DNA from: Gammaproteobacteria bacterium | Lineage (GTDB): Bacteria; Pseudomonadota; Gammaproteobacteria; Arenicellales; JAANXG01 | Length of the DNA stretch: 64,000 bases | Reading direction: 5' to 3' | Assembly (NCBI GenBank): GCA_024639325.1 | Contig: JAHEIO010000001.1 | Span: 54,404-118,403, forward strand | Shown: in pieces, positions 10,381-58,507 of the stretch | Numbering within the stretch: position 1 is the stretch's first letter | Layout: every line of letters starts with the position of its first letter | Position numbers and translations under genes: made by a program | The notes under the pieces: generated by a model | Seen by the model: the letters and a program-made list of their open reading frames with translations, nothing else | What the model was told of the DNA's origin: nothing | Databases searched by the model: none

Positions 10381-12459
10381 ATGGTCAAAATCCGAAACCC
10401 GTTACTCGATATGAAACGCCTGCCGGTATTCAGCGAGATCAGGCCCGAACATATTCAGCCCGCGATCGATTGCGTGCTCCTCGAGAACCGGCGGTGTATA
10501 GAGAAGCTGCAGTCAAAATCAGGTAAGGCGACCTGGGATTCTTTTGTTCGGCCCCTGGAAGAGCTAGAGGATCGATTGTCCAAAACCTGGTCGCCGGTAT
10601 CTCACCTTAACTCGGTCAAGGACAGCGAGGCGCTCCGCCGGGAGTACGAGGCGTGCTTGCCCAAGCTGGCGGCATACGAAACGGAACTCGGCCAGAATCA
10701 AGACATATTCGCGGCCTTTCAAGCTATCAAGGCCGGCCCCGAATTCGAGTCTCTGGATCAGGCCCAGCGGATGACCGTTGACCACGCCTTGCGGGACTTC
10801 CATTTGTCGGGCGTGGATCTGCCGACGCGGAAGAAACTGCGATTCAAGGAGATTCAAGAGCGACTGTCCATCCTCGGCAATCAGTTCGAGCGCAACCTGC
10901 TGGATGCCACCCATGCGTGGCAGCTGGACATCCGCGATAGCGGAGATCTTCGTGGCATTCCCCCGACGTCGCTGGATATGGCTCGGCAAATGGCGCGGGA
11001 ACACGAGCAGGAAGGTTGGCGATTTACACTCGACATGCCTTCTTATCTGGCGTTCATGACTTATGCGGACGACCGCTCCCTGCGCGAGACGATGTACGAG
11101 GCCTACGTCACGAGGGCAAGCGAACGGGGCCCCAACGGCGGCAAGTACGACAATGCCGACGGTATGCTCGAAATCTTGGAATTGCGTCGGGAAATGTCAC
11201 GGTTGCTTGGATTTGAAAATTACGCCGAGGTTTCGATGGCGACGAAAATGGCTGATGCCCCGGGGCAGACGATCGAATTCCTGCTTGATCTCGCCCGGCG
11301 CGCCCGGCCCACGGCCGAATCGGAGATCGAGGAATTGCGTAGATTTGCGGCTGACGAACTGGATATCACGCGGCTTGAAGCGTGGGACGTTCTGTATGCC
11401 TCCGAAAAACAGAAACAGTCGCTGTACGATTTTACCGAAGAAGAAATCCGGCCTTATTTCCCCGTGAACCGCGTGTTGAACGGCATGTTCAGCGTCGTCA
11501 GCCGATTGTACGGGCTGGAAATCGAGCGTATACCGAATGTGGATGTGTGGGACCCGGGGGTTCGGTTCTATCAGATTCTGGATTCCAAGGGTGAGGTACG
11601 CGGCCAGTTCTATGTCGATCTTCATGTACGTTCGAACAAGCGCGGCGGCGCATGGATGGACGCGTTTTCGAACCGGAAGCGTATTGGCAACTCGGTGCAG
11701 ATCCCGGTTGCCTATCTGACCTGCAATTTCACCATTCCCACGGTCGACAAACCCGCCCTGCTGACCCATGATGATGTAATTACGCTGTTTCATGAGTTCG
11801 GTCATGGTCTGCACCACATGCTGACCAGGGTAGACTACCTCAGCGTCTCCGGTATCAACGGTGTTGCATGGGATGCGGTTGAGCTGCCGAGTCAGTTCAT
11901 GGAGAACTGGTGCTGGCAGAGCGAGGCCCTCGAGCTGATCGGCAGCCATTATGAGAGCGGTGAATCGTTGCCGGATGATCTGCTGGCAAAAATGAAACAG
12001 GCCCGGAATTTTCAGTCCGGAATGCAGTTATTGAGGCAGATCGAGTTCGCGCTGTTCGACATGCGGCTGCACTCGGATTTCGGAGGCCGGGATAGTAGCG
12101 ACATTCAGGCACTGCTCGACGAGATACGGGATGAAATCGCCGTGATCGTGCCGCCCGCTTACAACAGATTCCAGAACAGCTTCTCGCATATATTCGCCGG
12201 CGGGTATGCGGCGGGTTACTACAGCTATAAATGGGCGGAAGTGCTCTCGGCCGATGCGTTCAGCCTGTTCGAGGAACGGGGAATTTTCGACCGGGCGACC
12301 GGGCGGTCGTTTCTATCCAAAATCCTTGAGACGGGTGGTTCGGTGGACCCGCTCGATGCATTCATTTCGTTTCGCGGTCGCGGGCCTAAGATTGATGCCC
12401 TGTTGCGCCACAGCGGCCTGGGTGGCGCCGGTGTGCCCGAAAATCAGGCCGCAAGGTGA
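10381..12459 (+). CDS. prlC: oligopeptidase A (M3 metallopeptidase)
   Basis: 692 aa. The zinc motif HEFGHGLHH is present, along with an NPLL...LPVFSEIRPEH N-terminus as in PrlC. Confidence 0.9.
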   Translation: MVKIRNPLLDMKRLPVFSEIRPEHIQPAIDCVLLENRRCIEKLQSKSGKATWDSFVRPLEELEDRLSKTWSPVSHLNSVKDSEALRREYEACLPKLAAYETELGQNQDIFAAFQAIKAGPEFESLDQAQRMTVDHALRDFHLSGVDLPTRKKLRFKEIQERLSILGNQFERNLLDATHAWQLDIRDSGDLRGIPPTSLDMARQMAREHEQEGWRFTLDMPSYLAFMTYADDRSLRETMYEAYVTRASERGPNGGKYDNADGMLEILELRREMSRLLGFENYAEVSMATKMADAPGQTIEFLLDLARRARPTAESEIEELRRFAADELDITRLEAWDVLYASEKQKQSLYDFTEEEIRPYFPVNRVLNGMFSVVSRLYGLEIERIPNVDVWDPGVRFYQILDSKGEVRGQFYVDLHVRSNKRGGAWMDAFSNRKRIGNSVQIPVAYLTCNFTIPTVDKPALLTHDDVITLFHEFGHGLHHMLTRVDYLSVSGINGVAWDAVELPSQFMENWCWQSEALELIGSHYESGESLPDDLLAKMKQARNFQSGMQLLRQIEFALFDMRLHSDFGGRDSSDIQALLDEIRDEIAVIVPPAYNRFQNSFSHIFAGGYAAGYYSYKWAEVLSADAFSLFEERGIFDRATGRSFLSKILETGGSVDPLDAFISFRGRGPKIDALLRHSGLGGAGVPENQAAR

Positions 12460-46517: not shown

Positions 46518-47756
46518 TCACTGCATTTTCTGCACGATGGAAATGAAAATGCTTGCGAAAATCGCCGATGTGATGACTCCACTGATGCTTGCTCCCAGTG
46601 CGTGCGGCAGGATAACCGCACCCGGGGTCTCCGCCGCGACGCACTTCTGCGCCACTTTGGCACAGGTGGGGACACAGCTCACGCCGGCAATGCCTATGAC
46701 GGGGTTGTACTTTTTTCCGGTCGCGAAATACAGGATATAACCTCCGATCAGGCCGCCGATCCCCGACAGCAGCAGGGCAAGGATGCCGATTACAAGCAGC
46801 GTCACCACCTTGGGGTCGAGAAGGGTATTGGCCTCGCACAGTATGCCCAGCAGCAGGCCCAGAAAGAAGGTGGCGCCGTAGAGAACAGGGCCACCAAAGG
46901 TCTGGACGTAATGTCCCAGATCGCTCTCGCGGATCATGACGCCCAGGAACAAGGACAGAAAAAGCGGTGCAGCCACGGGGAACAACAGACACAACACCGT
47001 ACATGCGACTACCGAAAAAATGATTTTCTCGCGCGAGGAGATGACGCGGGTTTTTTCGGGCGGCATCTGCAGACCGCGGATATGCTTTGGAACCAGCATC
47101 CGGATCAGGTAAGGATAGCCCCCGTAGGTCAGGCCCAGGTATAGATAGGCGACCACCGTTATGGGTACGAACAGATCCGGGGAAAGTAACAGCGCCGTGA
47201 ACAGGATCATGGGCCCGTCAGCGCCGCCGATGGTCGCTACTGCCGCCGCATCGTTGATGGGCAGATCCCACCAGATGGCGAGCGGAAATGCCAGCACCGT
47301 GCCGAGTTCGGCACACAGTGCAATGAACATGCTCTTGAACGGCCGGGCGATCACGAAACCGACGTCCAGAAGCACGCCCACGCCGAGAAGTACCAGACAG
47401 GCGATCAATCCGTTGCTGAAGGTGAATGTATAAATGGGCTGAAGCCAGTCGAACTGCAGGGTGGCCATCAGGGCTTCGGTATCCTCGACCAGTGGATCGA
47501 GAAACAATGTCCCCTGCCGACCGGTTTCCTTGTCCCAGAACAGTACGCTGGCATTGACCACCGACATTCCAAGGCCCATGGGTATCATCAGCAGCGCCTC
47601 CAGCACCCCCTTGCGCCCCAGATAAATAAGAAGAAAGCCGAGCAGGATCAGGAAGATCCTCATGGCCGCGATTTCGGGCTCCGACGCGAGCAGCGTCGCG
47701 ATTCCCTGAAACAAGTCGATGTCGAGGAACTCGACCGGCGCCGCGCCAGATTTCAT
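46518..47756 (-). CDS. Na+-translocating decarboxylase beta subunit (OadB/MmdB/GcdB family)
   Basis: 412 aa polytopic protein. The N-terminus FQGIATLL...ILLGFLLIYLG..G.LEALLMIPMGLGM is as in OadB-family pumps. Confidence 0.85.
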   Translation of the reverse strand: MKSGAAPVEFLDIDLFQGIATLLASEPEIAAMRIFLILLGFLLIYLGRKGVLEALLMIPMGLGMSVVNASVLFWDKETGRQGTLFLDPLVEDTEALMATLQFDWLQPIYTFTFSNGLIACLVLLGVGVLLDVGFVIARPFKSMFIALCAELGTVLAFPLAIWWDLPINDAAAVATIGGADGPMILFTALLLSPDLFVPITVVAYLYLGLTYGGYPYLIRMLVPKHIRGLQMPPEKTRVISSREKIIFSVVACTVLCLLFPVAAPLFLSLFLGVMIRESDLGHYVQTFGGPVLYGATFFLGLLLGILCEANTLLDPKVVTLLVIGILALLLSGIGGLIGGYILYFATGKKYNPVIGIAGVSCVPTCAKVAQKCVAAETPGAVILPHALGASISGVITSAIFASIFISIVQKMQ

Positions 47757-47759
47757 GTT

Positions 47760-48140
47760 TTATTCTATGGTCAGTATGCGCTGTCCGGCGTCGATTGCGT
47801 CTTTTACATTCACCGCCAGGTCTGTAATTTTACCGGTTTTGTGAGCCACCACCGTGGTCTTCATCTTCATCGCCTCGATGACGGCCACCTCCTGGCCCTG
47901 GGTAACCTCCTCTCCCTGCGTCACGGGCAACGCACTAATGACTCCCGCCAGCGGGCTCATCAGGTCATTGGGCCCGTGGTCGGATACCGCGGCTGGTGCG
48001 GGCGCTGGAGCCGATGCAGCGGGAGCCGGGATTTTCATGTCCCCCGGCTGGGGCAGTATATAGCTGGTACCCTCGCTCATATCCTCGACGGTGACATCGT
48101 ACTCCACCCCGTTTACGGTAATCTTGAATTTTTTCTGCAT
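47760..48140 (-). CDS. biotin carboxyl carrier subunit (MmdC/GcdC-like)
   Basis: 126 aa. It has an Ala/Pro linker and the biotinylation motif EAMKM. Confidence 0.85.
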   Translation of the reverse strand: MQKKFKITVNGVEYDVTVEDMSEGTSYILPQPGDMKIPAPAASAPAPAPAAVSDHGPNDLMSPLAGVISALPVTQGEEVTQGQEVAVIEAMKMKTTVVAHKTGKITDLAVNVKDAIDAGQRILTIE

Positions 48141-48152
48141 CAGTCGATCCTG

Positions 48153-48491
48153 TTATTCGCCGGGCAAGCGGTGTGGATGGTGTGGAACGTTGTGTGACAC
48201 ATGATGGGCCGTGCGTCCCTCCGACGTCCACGCGCGATTGCGGCTGCGCTCCTCGATGTGCACGATGCGGTGCGCGCCAAGACAAGCGTATATTGCGGCC
48301 GCGATTGCGGCTACGTGTTGTTGAGGAGGGGCCGCGCCGGCTGCCTGTCTCGGCTGCGGCATGGCCGGTTCGGCATCCGTCCTGCTTACCGCCACCGCCA
48401 ACACGATCAACTTGATCATGACGGCAACCGCCATGGAAATGACAATGGCCAGCGCATAGATCTTGAAGCTCAGCAGCACGAATTCAGACAT
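48153..48491 (-). CDS. small membrane subunit (OadG/MmdD-like)
   Basis: 112 aa. It has one N-terminal TM helix and an AAIAAAI motif as in OadG-type subunits. The C-terminus is His-rich. Confidence 0.5.
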   Translation of the reverse strand: MSEFVLLSFKIYALAIVISMAVAVMIKLIVLAVAVSRTDAEPAMPQPRQAAGAAPPQQHVAAIAAAIYACLGAHRIVHIEERSRNRAWTSEGRTAHHVSHNVPHHPHRLPGE

Positions 48492-48522
48492 GATTTATCC
48501 CTTAATTTCCTCGATCGCTTGT

Positions 48523-50076
48523 TCAAAGTGGAATGGTGCCGTGCTTCTTGGGCGGTCTCAGTTCGCGCTTGGACAGCGTTTTTCGCAAGGCCAGCGCGAT
48601 CACCGAGCGGGTCTCCGAAGGCTCGATAACATCCGTGATGTAACCGCTGGAGGCGGAAAGGTAAGGGCTACAGAACTCCCCCCGATACGCGGCGGCCAAT
48701 TCCGCGGCCCGGCTGCCGGGATCCTCGGCTTCCTTGAGTTCCCGGCTGTAGAGGATTCTCACCGCCCCTTCCGCACCCATGACCGCGATCTCGGCCGTCG
48801 GCCAGGCGTAAACCAGGTCTGCGCCCATTTCCTGGCTGCACATGGCCAGATAAGAGCCGCCGTAGGCCTTGCGCATGATGATGGTGATCTTTGGCACCGT
48901 CGATGCCGCGTAGGCGTAGAGCATCTTGGCGCCGTGACGAATGATACCGCGGCGCTCCTGCTCCACGCCCGGGAGAAAGCCCGGAACGTCCACCAGCGTG
49001 ACCAGCGGAATGTTGAAGACATTGCAGAAGCGGATGAACCTGGCGCCCTTGTCCGCGGCATCGATATCCAGAGCGCCAGCCATCACCATCGGCTGATTTG
49101 CGACTATGCCCACGACCATGCCTTCGATGCGGGCGAAGCCCACGATCAGGTTCCTGGCGAAGCCGGCGTGGACCTCGAGGAATTCGTTGGTATCGACCAG
49201 GTGCTGGATCACCTGATGGGTATCCAGAGGTTGTGCAATATCGTCTGGAATGATGTCGTTGATGCTCTCGTCGCGGGTAAGGGCAACGTCGGCGTCGATG
49301 CGATGGGGCGGATCTTCGGTATTGTTCGAGGGCAAAAAAGTCAGTAATCGGTGAACCAGCGCGATAGCCTGCAGGTCGTCATCAACCAAGAAATGGGCAT
49401 TGCCGCTGACCGTCGCGTGCATGATGGCGCCGCCGATTTCATCCATAGTGGTGTCGCGGCCGGTGACCGTCTTGATGACTGCTGGGCCGGTGATGAACAT
49501 ATGCGCGTTGTTGCGGGTCATGATGACAAAATCCATCAGCGCCGGAGAATACGACGCGCCGCCGGCACACGGTCCCATGATGACCGCAATCTGCGGGACT
49601 ACCCCTGACATCAGAACATTTTGATAGAACACCCTGCCGTACCCGGAAAGCGCGTCTACGCCCTCCTGAATGCGTGCACCGCCTGAATCCTTGAAGGCGA
49701 CCAGCGGCACACCCATCTTCATCGCATAACGCGTTACCTGCACGATCTTATGTGCGTGCATCTTGCCGAGGGTGCCGGCGCTGACGGTGAAATCCTGGCT
49801 GAACGCGGCGACGGGAATACCACCGACGTAGCCCGTGCCGACGACGATGCCGTCGGCTGGCAGGTCTTTTTTATCCATCCCGAAATGGTGCGTCTGGTGG
49901 TGCACATGGGCGCCCATCTCCTGGAATGTGTCCGGCTGGAACAAGGCCAGGAGGCGCTCCCGGGCCGTCAGCAAACCCTTTTCATGGCGCTTGCGGACCT
50001 TTTCCTCGCCGCCCGCAGAGAAGATTTTCTCGCGGCGTGCCTCGAGTTCCGTGATGAATTTTTTTGGTAGGGTCAT
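48523..50076 (-). CDS. acyl-CoA carboxyltransferase subunit (methylmalonyl-CoA decarboxylase alpha-like)
   Basis: This is a Carboxyl_trans family protein. The N-terminus ELEARREKIFSAGGEEKVRKRHEKGLLTARERL resembles MmdA/PccB. I prefer the start at ATG 50076; alternatives are 50136 or the track start 50271. Confidence 0.85.
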   Translation of the reverse strand: MTLPKKFITELEARREKIFSAGGEEKVRKRHEKGLLTARERLLALFQPDTFQEMGAHVHHQTHHFGMDKKDLPADGIVVGTGYVGGIPVAAFSQDFTVSAGTLGKMHAHKIVQVTRYAMKMGVPLVAFKDSGGARIQEGVDALSGYGRVFYQNVLMSGVVPQIAVIMGPCAGGASYSPALMDFVIMTRNNAHMFITGPAVIKTVTGRDTTMDEIGGAIMHATVSGNAHFLVDDDLQAIALVHRLLTFLPSNNTEDPPHRIDADVALTRDESINDIIPDDIAQPLDTHQVIQHLVDTNEFLEVHAGFARNLIVGFARIEGMVVGIVANQPMVMAGALDIDAADKGARFIRFCNVFNIPLVTLVDVPGFLPGVEQERRGIIRHGAKMLYAYAASTVPKITIIMRKAYGGSYLAMCSQEMGADLVYAWPTAEIAVMGAEGAVRILYSRELKEAEDPGSRAAELAAAYRGEFCSPYLSASSGYITDVIEPSETRSVIALALRKTLSKRELRPPKKHGTIPL

Positions 50077-50226
50077 ATATCGGCCTTTGAATACATTGTC
50101 ATATCGACCGAGGTCGAATTGCTTGATTGAGGTCATTTTAGCCCACCGATGCCCTCCGAGGATATCGTCGAGGTCGACTTGATGCCTGTCAACCCGCGCC
50201 GCCGTCAAGGGTGTTACAAAAGGTCC

Positions 50227-50928
50227 ATGTGGCAGCCGCCCAGCAATGTCACCGAGGATCCGGACCTGCACAACCGATGTCCCGTGTTTTCGGACAGATC
50301 GATGGCCGGGGCGGGGCTGGCGAAGATAATGAGCGAAAGGGAGGACTGCGGCGCCGTTGTTTGCGCCATTCCTGCCGGGGGTGTCCCCGTGGCTGCCGCA
50401 TTAGCCGCGGCGCTTCGTCTGAGCCTGGACCTACTGATCGTAAGCAAAATGACACTGCCCTGGAACACCGAGGCGGGCTTCGGGGCCGTAGCCGCCGACG
50501 GCGCCATCGAAATCAATCGGCCGATGGTGAATGCCATGGCTCTGGATCTTGATACGATCGACAAGAGCATCGAAGCAACCTCGAAAAAAGTCGCGCTAAG
50601 AGAACGACACTACCGCCGATTGATCGACAAACAGACTCTGACCGGTGCTGCCGTGATACTTGTCGATGACGGGCTTGCGTCCGGATTTACGCTGCGCGTC
50701 GCCATCAAGTCCGCCAGGGCCCAGGGTGCCGGAACAATCGTGGTTGCGGTGCCGACCGGTCACAGCGATTCCGTTGCCGGCATCGCACCCCTGTGCGACC
50801 GGTTGTACTGTGCCAATGTACGCGAAGGCATGCGCTTTGCGGTGGCTGCTGCTTACGCGACCTGGTCAGACGTCAGCGAGAGTGAGGTCATGCAGCAACT
50901 CGCTGACTGGCATCGGATGAAAGCATAG
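50227..50928 (+). CDS. phosphoribosyltransferase-family protein
   Basis: The PRT fold motif VILVDDGLASGFT is present. The start is uncertain; Met27 of the track ORF was chosen so that the conserved F.DR..AG N-terminal block is retained. Confidence 0.55.
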   Translation: MWQPPSNVTEDPDLHNRCPVFSDRSMAGAGLAKIMSEREDCGAVVCAIPAGGVPVAAALAAALRLSLDLLIVSKMTLPWNTEAGFGAVAADGAIEINRPMVNAMALDLDTIDKSIEATSKKVALRERHYRRLIDKQTLTGAAVILVDDGLASGFTLRVAIKSARAQGAGTIVVAVPTGHSDSVAGIAPLCDRLYCANVREGMRFAVAAAYATWSDVSESEVMQQLADWHRMKA

Positions 50929-51013
50929 TCAACGACCCGGTTACATCACCCATAACCGTGGGATGTCCGTAAAATTTGTATGTTCGACAATCGTTTGCGG
51001 GCCCTGCCGTAAT

Positions 51014-51523
51014 TCACTGCAGCGCGGACGGTTTTACCAGGTGCAGCAGCCGGGCGCTTCCTTCGGACAATGATTGCCAATCGTCGGGCATGGTCAGGCA
51101 GGCCAGGGCGGCGGTAGGCATGAGTTTTCCATCATCGGGAAGCATGGGCGGTGCGGGCACCAAATACAGCAGCAAAGTCTCGAGACCGGGGTTGTGACCG
51201 ACCAGAAGTACGCGTTTGGCCTCGGGTGAACAATCGCGCAGAACATCCAGCAGCTGTTCCAGGGACGCATCGTATACCCGCTCATCGGTGTGTATCTCCG
51301 CACTCTCCAAAGCCATCGCTTGCAGCACCCTGCGAGTTGTATCGATGGCCCGGGTGGCGGGCGAACTTACGACGTAATCCGGAGTGAGCGCCCGGTCCTG
51401 CAGCCACTTCGCAATCACCTGTGCGCCACGTTTTCCGCGCTTTTTGAGCGGACGATTGTAGTCATCGGTACCGGCACTCCAATCTGATTTCCCGTGCCTG
51501 AGTATGAGAAGTTCTCTGGTCAT
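51014..51523 (-). CDS. sixA: histidine phosphatase, SixA-like
   Basis: It has LILRHGKS (catalytic RHG), a later VGHNPG motif, and a SixA-like size of about 170 aa. The start is ATG 51523. Confidence 0.65.
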   Translation of the reverse strand: MTRELLILRHGKSDWSAGTDDYNRPLKKRGKRGAQVIAKWLQDRALTPDYVVSSPATRAIDTTRRVLQAMALESAEIHTDERVYDASLEQLLDVLRDCSPEAKRVLLVGHNPGLETLLLYLVPAPPMLPDDGKLMPTAALACLTMPDDWQSLSEGSARLLHLVKPSALQ

Positions 51524-51752
51524 ATTTCGTTTTCGTCCGTTACGCCTGGTCGCCGGTCTTGGCAACACTTAATCGAATTTGACTCCTATGTACAATTATG
51601 TCCGAATACTGCAGGTTTATGCTACCGGTCAGTGCACCGACTGAGCGCTCTTGGGGCTGGATTGACGCTAGGTGTAGTGCACGGGAATCGGGCTGTCCAT
51701 CCTTACCGATACAGGAGGAAGCCCCATTCAATTTTGCGAGGAATCGTCTTCA

Positions 51753-53345
51753 TTGACTGAATTTAAATCGAGAAAACAAAGGCTTAGAGAATTCTTGCTC
51801 CCCGAGGGTAAGACAGCGGCTTCGTTCGTCAGATCCTTGCGCAAGCTCGCCGGAATCCGCCGGGCGTCGGCCGGTAAATACGACTGCGTTCTCTACGACA
51901 GCTTCGACGGACGAGCTTATGCCCAGAATGTGCTGCTGAGTTGGGTGGATCGCGAAGGCGGCGGCATATTGCAGGCGTTGTCGGCGCGGGACACGGCATT
52001 GCTCTGGGAGCAGCCGATGAAGAAGCCACCGCCGCGATTCGGCTGGACCATCGACCGGCCTGACAAGGCCGCGTGGCTCAAACGGTGTATGGGTCTGCGT
52101 GCGCTGTTGCCCGCAATCAAGCTGTCAGTGAAGCGGCAGACCTTCCGATGGACCGACGACGAGGACAAGACGCGGGCATGGATACATGTGGAAGACACGG
52201 AGATATCGACCGGCGGTGAATGGGCCCACGCCGGGGTTCGGTTGGTAATCGAACCGCTGCGCGGTTATGCGAGTTCCGTGAAGCGGCTGGAAGACAGAAT
52301 AGTCCATGATACCGGCGCCCGGATCGATCCCGAAGGCTTGTTCGTAAGGCTCATGGAGCGCCATAGTATTGAGTTCGCGCGTCGCAGCGCCAGGCTCAAC
52401 GTGATTCTCGAGCCCGAGATGGAGCCGCGTGCGGCCATAGTCAAGGTGCTGACATTTCTTGCGGACGTGATGGAAGTCAACGAGGAAGGCGTCATGGCCG
52501 CATGGGATACGGAATTCCTTCATGACTTGCGGGTCGCGATTCGAAGAACGCGTTCGCTTCTCGGGCAGCTCAAGAAACAGTTTTCCGCGGAGGACATACA
52601 GCCGTTTCGAGATGAGTTCGCCTGGTTGGGACAGGCTACCGGACGAATGCGAGATATCGATGTCTATTTGCTGGAAATCCCCGAGTTCCAGAAAATGCTG
52701 CCAACGCGCTTTCGCGGCGATCTGATGCCGGTCAGAGACCTGCTGCTGAAACAACAGAAGGCCGAGCACAAGAAGCTCAAAGCTGTGCTGAGATCGAAGA
52801 AATATCGCGACCTGATGACACGATGGCGTGCATTTCTCGAACAGCAACAGCCGGAGCCATCGGCGCCGTCGGGAAATGGCGCCACGGTTGCGATGGTGGC
52901 GAGGAAAAGGATACGCGCGTTGTACAAGCGGGTATTGAAAGAGGGCTGGGCGATCGACGACGAATCGCCCGCGGAAGACCTCCACGAACTGCGTAAATCA
53001 TGCAAAAAGCTGCGTTACCTGATTGAGTGCTTCCAGAGCCTGTTTCCGGCCGATCAGATTGGGGCGGTCATTCGTAAAATGAAGCAGCTCCAGGAAAACC
53101 TCGGCGAATTCCAGGACCTCGACGTTCAGATCGACGGTCTGCTGGAATTCGCCGAACAGCTGGATATCGATAGAGAGGATACGCCGAAAAATCTGCTGGC
53201 GATGGGCGCCATACTCGGAAACCTGGAACATCGAAAGCGCGAGGTCCGGACAGAGTTCAAAGGTCGCTTTGCCGCATTCTCATCCAGTGAGAATCGGGAC
53301 CGTTTCAACAACTTGTTCAGGTATGCACAACGACAGGCCGCATAG
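51753..53345 (+). CDS. CHAD-domain protein with a degenerate CYTH-like N-terminal half
   Basis: 530 aa with a TTG start. A CHAD helical region begins near FLHDLRVAIRRTRSLL, with a second HELRKSCKKLRYL repeat. The N-terminal ~230 aa resembles a CYTH barrel (VLYDSFDGRAY) but lacks the ExExK motif. The extreme N-terminus is basic (KSRKQRLR). Confidence 0.7.
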   Translation: MTEFKSRKQRLREFLLPEGKTAASFVRSLRKLAGIRRASAGKYDCVLYDSFDGRAYAQNVLLSWVDREGGGILQALSARDTALLWEQPMKKPPPRFGWTIDRPDKAAWLKRCMGLRALLPAIKLSVKRQTFRWTDDEDKTRAWIHVEDTEISTGGEWAHAGVRLVIEPLRGYASSVKRLEDRIVHDTGARIDPEGLFVRLMERHSIEFARRSARLNVILEPEMEPRAAIVKVLTFLADVMEVNEEGVMAAWDTEFLHDLRVAIRRTRSLLGQLKKQFSAEDIQPFRDEFAWLGQATGRMRDIDVYLLEIPEFQKMLPTRFRGDLMPVRDLLLKQQKAEHKKLKAVLRSKKYRDLMTRWRAFLEQQQPEPSAPSGNGATVAMVARKRIRALYKRVLKEGWAIDDESPAEDLHELRKSCKKLRYLIECFQSLFPADQIGAVIRKMKQLQENLGEFQDLDVQIDGLLEFAEQLDIDREDTPKNLLAMGAILGNLEHRKREVRTEFKGRFAAFSSSENRDRFNNLFRYAQRQAA

Positions 53346-54085
53346 TGAAAGTCATTGCCAGTTACAATATCAAGGGGGGCGTGGGGAAAACGGCGGCCGC
53401 TGTGAACCTGTCCTACCTGGCAGCCGGAGAAGGTGCCTCGACACTCGTCTGGGACCTGGATCCTCAGGGCGCCGCGTCTTTTTACTTCCGCATCAAGCCG
53501 AAAATTCAAATGGGCGGCAAGGGCCTTTTTCGCCGTAAACGTGCATTGGAGAGAGTGATCAAGGGGACCGACTTTCCCAATCTGGATCTAATACCCGCCG
53601 ACTTCTCGTATCGGAACATGGATCTGATTCTGGAGGGTCTTAGAAATCCGCAGAACCGGATACGTAAATTGCTAAAACCGATGGCGAGAGAATACGACTA
53701 CGTGTTCATCGACTGTCCGCCCAGCATATCCCTGGTGTCGGAAAATGTATTCAAGGCGGCAAATGTTCTTTTGGTTCCAACTATTCCAACCACGCTCTCC
53801 CTGCGCACCCTCGACCAGCTGGTTACATTCATCGCGAAGAGAGGTTACAGGAATTTCACGCTCCTGCCGTTCTTCTCCATGGTCGACAGGAGAAAAAACA
53901 TTCATCGGCTGATCACCAAGCACCGGCCCATGGGTATGGGAAAGTTCCTCGACAGTACGATCCCTTACGCCAGTATCGTGGAACGGATGGGTACCGAGCG
54001 CGCCCCCCTCGAAGTGTATGCCCGCAGCAGTCCCGCCGCCGGGGCCTTTAGGTCGCTCTGGCTGGAGCTCAAAACGAGGCTCTGA
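53345..54085 (+). CDS. orphan ParA/MinD-family ATPase
   Basis: 246 aa. It has the deviant Walker A IKGGVGKT, Walker A' (WDLDPQG) and Walker B (VFIDCPP). There is no N-terminal HTH. The GTG start overlaps the CHAD stop (TAGTG). Confidence 0.85.
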   Translation: MKVIASYNIKGGVGKTAAAVNLSYLAAGEGASTLVWDLDPQGAASFYFRIKPKIQMGGKGLFRRKRALERVIKGTDFPNLDLIPADFSYRNMDLILEGLRNPQNRIRKLLKPMAREYDYVFIDCPPSISLVSENVFKAANVLLVPTIPTTLSLRTLDQLVTFIAKRGYRNFTLLPFFSMVDRRKNIHRLITKHRPMGMGKFLDSTIPYASIVERMGTERAPLEVYARSSPAAGAFRSLWLELKTRL

Positions 54086-54150
54086 TCGGACGGTATTTAT
54101 TGTCCGGGGCACTGAGGGGATATCCGAGCCGGTCCGAGTGCGCCAGGGTG

Positions 54151-55134
54151 TCAGATCTTGGGTTCGAGATACTGTGCCTGGGTACAAATAAAATCCAGGA
54201 TCAGGCTTGCCCCGGCGAGTGCCGTGATGTCGCCGACATCGTAGGCAGGTGCCACCTCCACCAGGTCCATCCCGTGAATATTCAATCCGCCGAGTCCGCG
54301 TATGATCTCCTGCGCCTGGGCTGTGGTCAGGCCGCCGCAAACCGGAGTCCCGGTGCCGGGTGCATAGCAGGGGTCGAGACAATCTATGTCGAACGTCAGA
54401 TAGGCACTCGTGTCGCCGACCAGACGCCGGATCTCCGAGATCGTTTTCTTCGGGCCATTGTCGTGGACCCATTGTGCGTCGAGCCAGGTGAAACCGAGCG
54501 GATCACTGTTGTGGGTTCTGATGCCGATCTGGGCTGAGGTCGAGGGATCGACGATCCCCTCCTTCACCGCATGATAGAACATGGTGCCATGATCGACTCT
54601 CCCCGCTTCGTTGTCGGCCTTCCAGGTATCGGAATGTGAGTCGAAGTGGATGAGCGAGATTTTGCCGTGTGTTTTTGCGTGGGCGCGCACAATCGGCAGG
54701 GTGATGAAGTGGTCTCCTCCGAGTACGATCGACCGGGCACCTGCGTTCAGAATCCGATCGATATGCGCTTCGATGGACCCGGGTATGCTTTCCGGCCGCC
54801 CATGGTCGAAATCGCAGTCGCCGTAATCGATGACGGCCAGCCGGTCGAAGGGGTCGAATCCCCACGGCCAGGGCGCTCCCCAGGCCAGGTTGACCGACGC
54901 GGAGCGTATTGCCTGCGGCCCGAAACGGGCGCCCGGCCTGTGCGTGGTCGCGCTGTCGAAGGTCACGCCCGTCACCGCGAAATCGCAGCCGCTGAGATCT
55001 TTGCTGTAGAACCGCCGCATGAAACTCAATGCCCCCGAGAACGTATTCTCGTGCACCGTGCCGTAGACTTCCTTGCGCACGAAAGCCTGGTCAACGGTTT
55101 CCGTGTCGGGCGATTTTGAACTGTTTTCGGTCAT
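54151..55134 (-). CDS. ureohydrolase (agmatinase / guanidino-acid hydrolase family)
   Basis: 327 aa. The Mn-binding motifs LGGDH, FDSHSD and DIDCLDP are present. Confidence 0.75.
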   Translation of the reverse strand: MTENSSKSPDTETVDQAFVRKEVYGTVHENTFSGALSFMRRFYSKDLSGCDFAVTGVTFDSATTHRPGARFGPQAIRSASVNLAWGAPWPWGFDPFDRLAVIDYGDCDFDHGRPESIPGSIEAHIDRILNAGARSIVLGGDHFITLPIVRAHAKTHGKISLIHFDSHSDTWKADNEAGRVDHGTMFYHAVKEGIVDPSTSAQIGIRTHNSDPLGFTWLDAQWVHDNGPKKTISEIRRLVGDTSAYLTFDIDCLDPCYAPGTGTPVCGGLTTAQAQEIIRGLGGLNIHGMDLVEVAPAYDVGDITALAGASLILDFICTQAQYLEPKI

Positions 55135-55751: not shown

Positions 55752-56540
55752 GTGTCCCATTCTATGAAGAATTGGTTGCTAGTGATTATAACCGTGCTGA
55801 CCGCGACCGGTGTGCAGGCCGACCAGATCGAGATCATCCAGTTGCGGAACCGTTCGGCTGCGGAAATCATTCCTTTAATACGCCCGGTGATGAAATCTGG
55901 GGAGGCGCTGTCGGGAACCGGCTTCAAGCTGATACTGCGGGCCAGCCCCGAAACCATAGTAGCAGTCCGGCAAATACTGTCACAGATCGATTCGGGGCTG
56001 AAAAACCTGGTGATTTCCGTGGGCCTTGCCGGATCGTCTCGGGGAGAAGAAAGCGCGGCGGGGGGCGGCATTCGTTATGGCACGGAAAAAGGCGGCTCCG
56101 TGTCGGGATATATAGAACACGGCGAATCGACCGATCAATCGACGGGGACCCAGCGGATTCGCGTGCTCGAAGGTCAGCCGGCGTGGATAAACGCCGGGAA
56201 GACGCTGTTCGCGCCGGGAGTCGTCTATTCACCAGGGCGCGGGGTGGTTTATGGCCCGGTTCGGCACGATTTCGGCACCGGTTTTTACGTGGTCCCGAGG
56301 ATAGTCGGCGACCGGGTCAATCTCGAGATCAGTCAGCATCGAGAGACGCTATCTGGAACGGGGGCGGCGATAGACGTGCAAAGCGTCACCACGGTAGTGA
56401 CCGGATCACTGGGAGAGTGGATCGATATCGGCGGGGCTGTACAAAGCGAACAGCGGAAGCGGAGGGGCGTTCTCAGCGGGGCGCGTTCAGACATTGATCA
56501 GGAACACAGCGTCAGCGTCAGGGTCGATATCGTCGAATGA
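55752..56540 (+). CDS. small secretin-like exported protein (NolW/secretin-N domain plus a truncated secretin-like C-part)
   Basis: 262 aa with a signal peptide (LLVIITVLTATGVQA). The N-domain pattern is IEIIQLRNRSAAEIIPLIRPVM...GFKLILRASPETIVAVRQILSQID. The C-part has RVLEGQPAWI and VVPRIVGDRVNLEISQ blocks reminiscent of secretin cores. It overlaps yejA by ATGA. Confidence 0.45.
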   Translation: MSHSMKNWLLVIITVLTATGVQADQIEIIQLRNRSAAEIIPLIRPVMKSGEALSGTGFKLILRASPETIVAVRQILSQIDSGLKNLVISVGLAGSSRGEESAAGGGIRYGTEKGGSVSGYIEHGESTDQSTGTQRIRVLEGQPAWINAGKTLFAPGVVYSPGRGVVYGPVRHDFGTGFYVVPRIVGDRVNLEISQHRETLSGTGAAIDVQSVTTVVTGSLGEWIDIGGAVQSEQRKRRGVLSGARSDIDQEHSVSVRVDIVE

Positions 56541-58507
56541 CTCCGAACGGCCGATTTATTGGCGCCGCCTGCATAATCGGGTGGTTGTCCGTGCTAAGCG
56601 ATTCGCCGGTCTACGCCGATATCAGCGTCAGCCACGGTATCGCGATGCATGGAGAGCCGAAGTACGATGACGGTTTTTCCCATTTCGACTACGTCAATCC
56701 GCGGGCACCCAAGGGCGGTGAATTGAGGCTGGCAAGTCAAGGGACCTTCGACAGCTTTCACGCTTATATTCCCAAGGGCAATCCCGCTGCCACCGGCTCC
56801 GTCGAGACCCTGCTGACTTCCAGCGCCGACGAACCGTTCACCGAGTACGGGTTGATAGCCGAGACCATCGAGTATCCCGAGGATCGTTCGTGGGTCATAT
56901 TCAATCTGAGACCGGAAGCGCGCTGGCACGACGGCGTGCCCATCACCGCCGACGATGTGGTGTGGTCGTTCGAAACCCTGACCACCATGGGGCCGCCATC
57001 CTACCGATTTTATTACGGCGGGGTCGAATCCGCCGAGGTGCTCGGCGAACGCCGCGTCAAATTCACCTTCAGCGAAAAAAATAACCGCGAGCTGCCCCTT
57101 ATCGTGGGGCAGCTGCCGATTCTTCCAAAACACTATTGGCAGGGCCGGGACTTTCAAAAGACAACGCTGGACCCGCCGCTGGGAAGCGGACCCTACAGAA
57201 TCGCCGGATTCGAGGCCGGCCGCTATTATATTCAGGAACGGGTCAAAGATTACTGGGGCACGGACCTGCCCGTGAACGTGGGCATGCATAACTTCGATCG
57301 CATCCGGATCGATTTTTATAGGGACGATACCGCAATTCGCCTCGCGCTCAAATCCGGCGTCGTCGATTTTCGCTCGGAGAATCAGGCCAAGGCGTGGGCG
57401 CTCGATTTCAACGTGCCGTCGGTGGAAAAGGGCTGGCTGAGAAAGGAGCTGATCCGCAACCAGCGGCCGACCGGCATGCAGGGTTTCGTCATGAACAGCC
57501 GACGCGCGGTGTTCAGCGATGCCAAGGTGCGGGACGCGCTGGCGTACGCGTTCGATTTCCAGTGGACCAACAAGAATCTGTTCTTCAGCCAGTACACACG
57601 AACCGAGAGTTACTTTTCGAATTCGGAGCTCGCGTCTCGCGGGCTGCCCGAAGGGGAGGAGCTCGAGATTCTGGAGGCTTACCGTGGGCGTATACCCGAG
57701 CGGGTATTCACATCGCCGTTCCGCGCGCCCGCCACCGACGGCAGCGGCTGGGCCAGGGAAAATTTGCGCACCGCCTTCGCGCTGCTCGAAGAGGCCGGTT
57801 GGGAGGTGCGTGATATGAAACTCGTCGATACCGGGGGCGGTGAACAAATGTCGTTCGAGATCCTGCTGGTGAGCCCCGCATTCGAGCGCATCGTACTGCC
57901 GTTCACACGGAACCTTCGTCGACTCGGTATCGATGTCAGCGTGCGTCTCGTGGACCAGACGCAGTACATCAACCGGCTGCGCAGTTTCGACTACGACATG
58001 TTCATCTTTACCTGGGGCCAGTCGGAATCTCCGGGGAACGAGCAGCGAAACTTCTGGAGTTCCGCCGCCGCCGACAACCCGAGCAGCCGAAACTTCGCCG
58101 GCATCCGGGATCCGGTCGTGGATGAGTTGATAGAGCTCGTCATTTCGGCGCCGTCAAGGGAAAGCCTGGTGGCCCGGACGCGTGCGCTGGACCGCGTACT
58201 GCTGTCCGGTCATTACGTCATACCCAACTGGCACATCAGATCCGATCGGGTACTTTACTGGGACAAGTTTTCGCGTCCATCGAGGCCGGTCCGGGATGGC
58301 GTAATGGTCCAGCGCTGGTGGTTCGACGCCGAGAAGGCAGCGCGGCTCGAGCAGGCGAAGAATACCGATGCATCGCTGTTGGACCGCGGCGCCGATGGTG
58401 AGGACCGATGGGGCCTTGGGTGGGTGCTGGCGGCGCTGGCCGGCATGCTGTTGATCGGCTGGTTCGTGTTCCGGCGTGCCTGGCACTCGACGGGCGCCAA
58501 GGTATGA
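56537..58507 (+). CDS. yejA: family-5 ABC substrate-binding protein, YejA (microcin C/peptide uptake) type
   Basis: 656 aa. The N-terminal block is HGIAMHGEPKY...FDYVNPRAPKGGELRL. It is followed by yejB/E/F-type genes. An extra C-terminal TM segment is present. Confidence 0.7.
   Translation: MTPNGRFIGAACIIGWLSVLSDSPVYADISVSHGIAMHGEPKYDDGFSHFDYVNPRAPKGGELRLASQGTFDSFHAYIPKGNPAATGSVETLLTSSADEPFTEYGLIAETIEYPEDRSWVIFNLRPEARWHDGVPITADDVVWSFETLTTMGPPSYRFYYGGVESAEVLGERRVKFTFSEKNNRELPLIVGQLPILPKHYWQGRDFQKTTLDPPLGSGPYRIAGFEAGRYYIQERVKDYWGTDLPVNVGMHNFDRIRIDFYRDDTAIRLALKSGVVDFRSENQAKAWALDFNVPSVEKGWLRKELIRNQRPTGMQGFVMNSRRAVFSDAKVRDALAYAFDFQWTNKNLFFSQYTRTESYFSNSELASRGLPEGEELEILEAYRGRIPERVFTSPFRAPATDGSGWARENLRTAFALLEEAGWEVRDMKLVDTGGGEQMSFEILLVSPAFERIVLPFTRNLRRLGIDVSVRLVDQTQYINRLRSFDYDMFIFTWGQSESPGNEQRNFWSSAAADNPSSRNFAGIRDPVVDELIELVISAPSRESLVARTRALDRVLLSGHYVIPNWHIRSDRVLYWDKFSRPSRPVRDGVMVQRWWFDAEKAARLEQAKNTDASLLDRGADGEDRWGLGWVLAALAGMLLIGWFVFRRAWHSTGAKV

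Follow-up and report, generated by a model that had tools for sequence, protein, structure and literature searches.

A conserved pair of a CHAD protein and a ParA-type ATPase as a candidate ATP-driven organiser of polyphosphate granules

Several described systems resemble, each in one part, the gene pair considered here. In McdA-McdB, a small ParA-type ATPase that works without ParB is encoded beside a cargo-binding adaptor and serves a cytoplasmic body that is neither DNA nor membrane-bound. Polyphosphate (polyP) granules carry CHAD proteins, the phosins (PptA/PptB of Ralstonia eutropha; PptA of Streptomyces, structure 6RN5), for which no ParA partner has been described and whose deletion, according to the literature, did little to the formation of granules. 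Evenly spaced polyP granules of controlled size, the outcome proposed below, are associated with AlgP of Pseudomonas aeruginosa, which is unlike our proteins in being a histone-H1-like DNA-binding protein of unrelated sequence with no ATPase partner described. We analysed a 64,000-nucleotide stretch of a gammaproteobacterial contig (JAHEIO010000001.1, positions 54,404 to 118,403; hereafter the window), in which the gene of a 530-amino-acid (aa) CHAD protein runs into that of a 246-aa ParA-type ATPase. We propose that this CHAD-ParA pair belongs to a widespread kind of two-gene module that is devoted to polyphosphate, and we regard it as the best current candidate for an ATP-driven organiser of polyP granules. 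Its features are as follows (positions in the window):

51753 to 53345, forward strand: CHAD partner gene, 530 aa, start TTG, stop TAG at 53343-53345
51753 to 52397, forward strand: predicted N-terminal triphosphate tunnel metalloenzyme (TTM)/CYTH-fold domain, residues ~1-215, without ExExK
52398 to 53342, forward strand: long CHAD domain, residues ~216-530
53343 to 53347, forward strand: stop/start overlap TAGTG (TAG 53343-53345, GTG 53345-53347), one base in common
53345 to 54085, forward strand: ParA gene, 246 aa, start GTG
53372 to 53392, forward strand: Walker A motif K10-T16, with K10, G11, G12, G14, K15 and T16 invariant in 30 clade members

The overlap, which the first-pass annotation of this DNA had read in the same way, fits a translational coupling of the pair, and a GAGGAA at 51738-51743 lies 9 nucleotides (nt) before the TTG start of the CHAD gene. 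Compared with McdA-McdB, the pair has in common the small ATPase without ParB, the neighbouring gene for a cargo-binding partner and the ParA fold (Foldseek template-modelling (TM) score 0.77-0.84 to Cyanothece McdA). It differs in that the ATPase is just 20-21% identical to McdA, that the partner gene lies upstream and overlaps while a McdB-type partner gene lies downstream, and that the partner is a folded TTM-like/CHAD protein whereas McdB is largely disordered. The putative cargo is an inorganic polymer granule, and the canonical DNA-binding arginine of the ATPase is absent. With the phosins the partner shares the CHAD fold (Foldseek TM 0.73 to 6RN5).

Conservation of the pair carries the argument. 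In a scan of one genome per species, the relatives of the window ParA formed two separate groups: L010-L031, 98-39% identical to it, and the ordinary ParAs L032-L089, with at most 38% identity over the best segment. Scores in phmmer were 537-151 bits in the first group, from here on the clade, against at most 98.6 bits in the ordinary ParAs, with nothing between. In 16 of the 19 clade loci with at least 47% identity, a long (~520-aa) CHAD open reading frame (ORF) on the strand of the ParA gene runs up to the ParA start; none of the 58 ordinary ParAs has such a neighbour (Fisher p = 7e-14). The 16 loci span Gammaproteobacteria, Actinomycetota (Iamiaceae, Streptosporangiaceae, Microlunatus), Planctomycetota, Calditrichota and one alphaproteobacterium; L010, from the metagenome-assembled genome (MAG) 'uncultured Gammaproteobacteria bacterium FCS_Gamma_070', is 98% identical to the window at protein level. 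Homologue look-ups placed the pair also in Nitrosomonas marina and two other gammaproteobacterial contexts with differing flanks, and it is present in two chromosome-scale sequences (3.7 and 3.5 Mb), in non-origin contexts whose flanks again differ. When all flanking ORFs of the genome set were clustered, the ParA and CHAD genes alone recurred, with no recurrent third gene; the additional neighbours of the metagenome set (PstS-like, helix-hairpin-helix (HhH), CNNM/CorC, SixA-like, ppk1) are restricted to particular lineages. The ORFs of all loci were taken from stop to stop, and their starts are approximate.

For the reverse census, metagenomes were scanned with the CHAD family, which gave 80 loci, 6 of them too short downstream to judge. 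A clade ParA follows the CHAD gene directly in 53 of the 74 others, 32 of them with an overlap of 4 nt and most of the rest within 17 nt, and 21 loci have no ParA. Both censuses rest on seed peptides and the best 80 loci returned. The pairwise distances of the CHAD proteins and of the ParA proteins correlate with r = 0.82 (66 pairs), the ParA being the more conserved. Nearly all of the ParA-less loci (17/21) form one tight subclade (L136, L137, L140, L143, L147, L150, L163, L165, L166 and relatives), in which genes for a PstS-like protein (PBP_like_2) and a SixA-like protein are divergent to the CHAD gene and a BON-domain gene lies downstream. Another long CHAD gene without ParA (L178) is found on the 417-kb plasmid pTs417 of Candidatus Thiodictyon syntrophicum (400687-402273), ~3 kb downstream of pstB and pstS. 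The CHAD gene is whole in L004 (4426-6004, 525 aa) and split into 131 and 402 aa in the near-identical L005 (4427-6004), most likely by an assembly frameshift error. The 710-aa protein P0481 joins a partial CHAD (251-376) and a clade ParA (463-699) in one polypeptide, which could be a true fusion or an artefact of deletion or assembly.

No ParB was found with a hidden Markov model (HMM) built from four Pfam-verified ParBs in any of the 31 clade loci or the 80 CHAD loci, compared to 55 of the 58 ordinary ParA loci. One Calditrichota MAG harbours both the pair (L024) and a ParA-ParB locus (L087), so that the pair is present there in addition to a canonical ParA-ParB system. These results argue against a ParA of ordinary partition, chromosomal or plasmid, that came to lie beside a CHAD gene by chance, with its ParB and centromere elsewhere, a possibility to which we return below.

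The ATPase itself has AAA_31/CbiA/ParA-type domains (Pfam AAA_31, E 1.7e-34) and a deviant Walker A, NIKGGVGKT, with the signature lysine (K10), and it has no N-terminal extension. W36-D37-L38-D39-P40-Q41 (DLDPQ) and the Walker B aspartate D123 (FIDCPP) are invariant in the clade alignment. In NCBIfam the protein stays under the cut-off of every family matched (ParA_partition, RepA, BcsQ, MinD, SopA, PrgP), the best match being ParA_partition with 79 bits against a cut-off of 180. Its AlphaFold2 (AF2) model has a pLDDT of 87.6; like that of the CHAD partner it is a monomer. The best solved relatives are chromosomal ParA/Soj proteins (Myxococcus xanthus 8RAY, E 4e-23; Thermus thermophilus Soj 1WCV), with Foldseek TM 0.86-0.91, 27-28% identity and the deviant Walker A, DLDPQ and DCPPS motifs in common. 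The TM score to MinD is ~0.78, and the identity to the structures of McdA, MinD, FlhG and BcsQ is 15-21%. An exhaustive HMMER search returned 454 clusters at 50% identity with E <= 1e-30 for the clade and 7110 clusters with E <= 1e-10 for the wider superfamily. The separation of the clade is based on the gaps in score, on the percent identity to structures already solved and on the gene context, and by these the window ParA classifies as a member of a distinct CHAD-associated clade and not as an ordinary partition ParA.

The clade departs from ParA/Soj in one important feature, besides lacking ParB and, in the window pair, a centromere-like repeat. In the window ParA, Y208 and I211 take the place of the two arginines of the Soj-type IPRNVRLSEAP motif, and neither position is ever basic in the clade. 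The I211 column is basic in 0% of 43 clade members but in 93% of the 58 ordinary ParAs, and aligns with R238 of M. xanthus ParA (numbering mapped by alignment), whose R238E variant no longer shows non-specific DNA binding. The clade has conserved basic residues of its own, namely R49, K51, K53, K65, K73, R90, R100, R154, R182, K184, R188 and R219. Since the DNA-binding arginine is lost, nucleoid binding of the clade ParA cannot be inferred by homology, although it is possible that the ATPase binds the nucleoid by other residues of this kind.

The partner belongs to a family with thousands of members of ~517-530 aa that align over nearly the full length. Pfam CHAD (PF05235) covers residues 235-461 (E 1.4e-56, 192 bits against a cut-off of 25.6), and the family profile finds 6QV7, 6QVA (polyP complex) and 3E0S in the PDB at E ~2e-95. 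These structures are of CtCHAD, residues 207-522 of Q8KE09 of Chlorobium tepidum, in which mutants of H253, R256, R260, R296 and R418/Y419 have a lowered polyP affinity (PMC6537752). The window protein is of the same family, with 36% identity and a TM of 0.91-0.93 between its model and CtCHAD (two four-helix-bundle fold), and its H257, R260, R264, R300, R421 and Y422 correspond to the polyP-contact residues and stand in invariant family columns. We therefore propose that the CHAD half of the partner binds polyP chains, as these residues suggest. The published work deals with the CHAD half (207-522), and mentions neither the N-domain nor the ParA neighbour. A full-length protein of Chlorobaculum (522 aa), 98% identical to CtCHAD and with the same TTM-like N-domain, has a clade ParA immediately downstream, in a cluster ppk1 - 265-aa ORF - CHAD - ParA; this ParA is 49% identical to that of the window and has the clade motifs.

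The N-half gave no CYTH match in Pfam (E < 0.01), NCBIfam or a PDB profile search, and because of this its TTM fold is visible solely through structure prediction. The AF2 model of the 530-aa protein (pLDDT 88.4, pTM 0.84) is confident across the eight-stranded tunnel-fold region. Foldseek matches the N-half to TTM/CYTH enzymes (7NS8, 2GFG, 3BHD and others) with E 4e-5 to 1e-3 and TM 0.55-0.69 (normalised to target length), and the whole model to full-length Escherichia coli YgiF (5A60), a tripolyphosphatase with the same order of TTM and CHAD domains, with E 1e-10. YgiF differs in having an active ExExK tunnel and a short CHAD without central pore (PMC6537752), whereas the window protein has the long CHAD form and no ExExK, and the two are only 13% identical. 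ExExK is missing from all 30 family members (0/30), and the residues that the N-domain does conserve are D49 and D52 (YDxFDWRL), R116, K139-T140 and R170-G171-Y172. Since a TTM fold is predicted and no family member has ExExK, the N-half is, as far as the model tells, a tunnel-fold pseudo-enzyme that is catalytically dead; a degenerate CYTH-like N-half had also been called in the first-pass annotation.

The genomic surroundings of the pair point to polyP as well. In the flanks of 75 non-redundant pair loci (3.5-10 kb fetched), ppk1 occurs in 7, a PstS-like gene in 10 and a SixA-like gene in 5, altogether in 19 loci, and in L024 and L151 the CHAD gene follows ppk1 directly. For Acidithiobacillus a conserved folD-ppk-parA-CHAD cluster has been drawn in two papers (one is PMC6416229), in which the role of ParA is not discussed. 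Some clade members include a putative enzyme: 13 of the 150 best clade representatives are 504-561 aa long, with a C-terminal extension of ~260-310 aa. A Pfam scan of five of these identified three ParA-CYTH proteins (P0368, P0370, P0389), one ParA with a domain of the sucrose-phosphate-phosphatase type (P0380) and one without extension match (P0413), and ExExK is intact in P0370 (ELEFK) and P0389 (EIEFK). In L174 genes for a Na/Pi cotransporter and PPK2 on one strand are followed by CHAD and ParA-CYTH, overlapping by 4 nt, and by His_Phos_1; in L176 the order is NUDIX, CHAD, ParA-CYTH. On a plasmid of Paracoccus aestuarii DSM 19484, CHAD, ParA (43% identical to the window ParA), CYTH (EIERKF) and NUDIX are separate genes in this order.

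Some of these loci have peculiarities of their own. In P0380 (L177, 67-1752; contig of 2.3 kb) the C-terminal part is a sucrose-6F-phosphate phosphohydrolase/HAD domain (Pfam S6PP, E 1e-65). In the Chlorobiaceae loci L172 (5183-5977, forward strand) and L173 (4866-5969, forward strand), homologous ORFs of 265 and 368 aa without significant Pfam match lie directly upstream of CHAD, in one genome between ppk1 and CHAD and in the other between phoU and CHAD, and may be a lineage-specific third component. In L102 (5820-6221, forward strand), L107 (5959-6354, forward strand) and ~9 more metagenome loci, the gene next after ParA encodes a ~130-aa HhH protein (HHH_5, E 1e-13) and precedes a PstS-like gene, and a CNNM/CBS/CorC transporter gene is upstream and divergent. 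This HhH protein could be a DNA link that the ParA itself may lack.

The CHAD-ParA pair is very probably a functional unit tied to polyphosphate. The first-pass annotation had proposed a ParA-plus-adaptor system for polyP granules and had made this depend on the adjacency being conserved in relatives; it is conserved, across phyla and among unrelated flanks, and the expected separation from partition ParAs also emerged, from scores and from a gene context without ParB. Its link to polyP has become stronger than could be known at that time, because of the kinship with CtCHAD, the recurrent ppk1, PPK2, PstS-like and Na/Pi-cotransporter genes, and the CYTH fusions. Two mechanistic parts are not supported. 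The basic N-terminus of the partner, proposed there to activate the ATPase, is present in the window (MTEFKSRKQRLR, 5 K/R in 12 residues), but is not conserved in the family, and we have dropped it as an activator peptide. The placement of the system on the nucleoid has lost its basis, as the R238-equivalent is Ile211 and never basic in the clade.

With a probability of about 0.5, we favour a ParA-plus-adaptor system for the organisation of polyP granules, because of the known roles of ParA/MinD proteins, the granule binding of CHAD proteins, the lack of an enzyme in the minimal pair and the closeness to segregation ParAs. In such a system the CHAD protein would coat the granules through its long CHAD domain and serve as granule tag, and the clade ParA would take it as partner in place of ParB. 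ATP-bound ParA dimers would bind a polyanionic matrix, the nucleoid or possibly polyP itself. The granule-bound partner would then engage the dimers and drive their turnover, presumably by contact through the TTM-like domain. Similar to McdAB, ATP-driven cycling could separate the granules, set their number and size and share them between daughter cells. What we infer here is that ParA touches the CHAD protein, that its ATPase is stimulated, which matrix it uses and that granules end up positioned. An adjacent and co-inherited adaptor gene, as in McdAB, is documented here by the two censuses (16/19, 53/74), the 4-nt overlaps and the correlation of distances (r = 0.82); the conserved basic N-terminal activator peptide of the McdAB-like adaptors is lacking. 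The Soj-type arginines are lost, an invariant set of own basic residues is gained and some members are fused to a CYTH domain of a kind that binds polyP or triphosphate, and for these reasons the matrix may be polyP instead of DNA. ParA-ATP dimers would then build up a self-organising coat on the granules, with the CHAD protein driving their turnover, and this coat would set granule size, number and separation. That the pair is in this sense the first system to organise an inorganic storage granule with the help of ATP, with polyP as the matrix of its ParA, we consider quite unlikely.

Several observations speak against a granule organiser. About a quarter of the sampled long-CHAD genes have no adjacent ParA, and a few clade ParAs (L018, L022, L028-31) have no adjacent CHAD gene; near the latter no alternative partner was found, the neighbours being a histidine kinase, RsgA, ferritin, a hydrolase or proteins without Pfam match. 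The R238-equivalent and the other Soj-type IPRNVRLSEAP arginine are missing from the clade. The basic tail is confined to close relatives of the window, the family median being 5 residues before strand 1 with 1 basic residue, and no alternative ATPase-activator motif was identified. An enzymatic or regulatory complex would explain the active-looking CYTH fusions and the neighbouring NUDIX genes equally well. In other species, granules formed much as before when CHAD proteins were deleted (2026 paper). Most of the loci come from MAGs or metagenome contigs.

The main rival, unlikely but to be taken seriously, is suggested by the CYTH fusions and by the NUDIX and ppk neighbours: ParA could be a regulatory or assembly subunit of a polyP-processing complex with the TTM-like/CHAD protein and, in some lineages, CYTH and NUDIX, without moving granules. 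Its ATP-dependent dimerisation might in that case switch polyP nucleation, chain-end processing or the recruitment of PPK, a role that is given the same low credence. Such a complex would suit the intact ExExK in P0370 and P0389, the Paracoccus CHAD-ParA-CYTH-NUDIX operon with its EIERKF, ppk1 directly upstream in L024 and L151, PPK2 adjoining the pair in L174, and the loss of the canonical DNA-binding arginine. BcsQ and FlhG, members of the ParA/MinD superfamily and structural neighbours of the window ParA, are assembly or localisation factors and not segregation motors. However, the window and most other loci consist of two genes only and have lost ExExK, which leaves no enzyme to regulate; ppk and the other enzymes are facultative (19/75 loci), and the nearest structural relatives are segregation ParAs (TM 0.86-0.91). 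The granule could also be a mere landmark, at which CHAD anchors a ParA that positions another cargo, such as a chromosomal region or a protein complex, or at which ParA is sequestered. Reviews describe polyP granules as embedded in the nucleoid, with their position in Caulobacter tied to chromosome segregation; some ParAs are sequestered by scaffolds according to the literature, and the HhH protein directly after ParA in about 11 loci has a fold typical of non-specific DNA binding. Nevertheless we judge a landmark improbable, since no third conserved component that could be the cargo was found: the pair alone recurs in the genome set, and the extra genes of the metagenome set are lineage-restricted.

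The two remaining explanations treat the genes as unrelated neighbours, and both are contradicted by the census. It is highly improbable that the CYTH-CHAD protein acts enzymatically, as a class IV adenylate cyclase (proposed for 'ACAci' of Acidithiobacillus) or as a YgiF-like tripolyphosphatase, and that ParA has no functional relation to it. The match to the YgiF architecture (Foldseek E 1e-10) and the adenylate-cyclase role published for the Acidithiobacillus CYTH-CHAD beside ppk and parA (PMC6416229) would agree with it, but ExExK is missing throughout the family (0/30), Pfam CYTH is blind to the domain, and the tight coupling and co-inheritance with ParA speak against an unrelated neighbour. 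Hardly credible at all is the ordinary partition ParA mentioned above. It is true that the best solved relatives are chromosomal ParA/Soj (8RAY, E 4e-23; Foldseek TM ~0.9), that the Paracoccus homologue carries the GO term 'chromosome segregation' in RefSeq and that some copies are on large plasmids. Yet the scores leave a gap (at least 151 bits in the clade, at most 98.6 outside), ParB is found in 0/31 clade loci against 55/58 ordinary ones, and CHAD is adjacent in 16/19 against 0/58 (p = 7e-14). Furthermore, the pair and a ParA-ParB locus coexist in one MAG, the chromosomal contexts are non-origin and vary between genomes, all NCBIfam partition cut-offs remain unmet and there is no repeat array.

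The flanks of the pair in the window are:

51014 to 51568, reverse strand: SixA-like histidine phosphatase, divergent from the pair (His_Phos_1, E 5e-13)
51569 to 51752, no strand: divergent intergenic region with presumed promoters, containing GAGGAA at 51738-51743
54151 to 55134, reverse strand: agmatinase, convergent, downstream of the pair

Both neighbours had been recognised in the first-pass annotation, the latter as a ureohydrolase, and its view that neither ParB nor centromere-like repeats are nearby agrees with the ParB census and with the region 50900-54400, which has no such array, merely short two-copy chance repeats. Its description of a deviant Walker A KGGVGKT and no HTH applies as well. 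The SixA-like protein scores 62.5 bits with TIGR00249 sixA, below the cut-off of 74.5. Its listed ORF begins at GTG 51568; because homologues begin near MTRELLILRHG, the ATG at 51523 is likely the true start, with which the divergent intergenic region grows to about 229 bp. SixA-like homologues adjoin 5 of the 75 pair loci and 9 of the 21 ParA-less long-CHAD loci, and the gene is a recurrent yet facultative neighbour of the CHAD family. A promoter scan around the pair found no sigma-70 consensus (0 sites), and a scan for intrinsic terminators 3 terminator-like sites, not above shuffled sequence. The Pho box CTGTCATAWAWCTGTCAY has no match with up to 3 mismatches anywhere in the window. A 692-aa ORF (10381-12459), considered as ppk, is an M3 peptidase and not PPK1, and there was no polyP enzyme among the large window ORFs tested.

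Farther away, the reverse strand at 46518-50271 encodes an apparent biotin-dependent decarboxylase/carboxyltransferase cluster, judged from translations only, with ORFs for a 582-aa carboxyltransferase-like protein, a 112-aa small hydrophobic protein, a 126-aa biotin carrier (EAMKMK) and a 412-aa protein. The 582-aa ORF overlaps a phosphoribosyltransferase gene (50149-50928), and its start is probably over-extended. On the forward strand (55752-58507) the gene of a 262-aa protein with Secretin_N and Secretin matches near the Pfam thresholds overlaps the start of a gene for a 656-aa solute-binding protein, followed by ABC permease and ATPase genes. A short secretin-like protein is an unusual partner for an ABC importer.

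How bacteria space polyP granules and pass them on is an open question. In the full-text literature, subscription-only papers being outside the scope, our searches brought up no ParA-type system described for polyP. Polyphosphate is absent from a 2024 review of ParA/MinD cargos, a 2025 review names AlgP alone for polyP granules and marks its ATP dependence as unknown, and according to a 2026 paper it is undefined how E. coli and Caulobacter organise their granules, and CHAD proteins have no known function. Reviews up to 2026 know of no ATP-dependent system for polyP granules. The CHAD-ParA adjacency has already been drawn for Acidithiobacillus. What would be new is the type of partner and the cargo for ParA/MinD systems. 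The pair provides a concrete candidate with defined parts, and the question is directly testable, since there are cultivated carriers (Chlorobaculum, Paracoccus aestuarii, Nitrosomonas marina, Lutimaribacter and, from the literature, Acidithiobacillus) and the CHAD half of one member has been crystallised with polyP. If the proposal is true, it would extend the cargo range of ParA/MinD proteins to an inorganic polymer, and it may suggest what CHAD 'phosins' and a catalytically dead TTM domain do, neither of which has had a known function so far.

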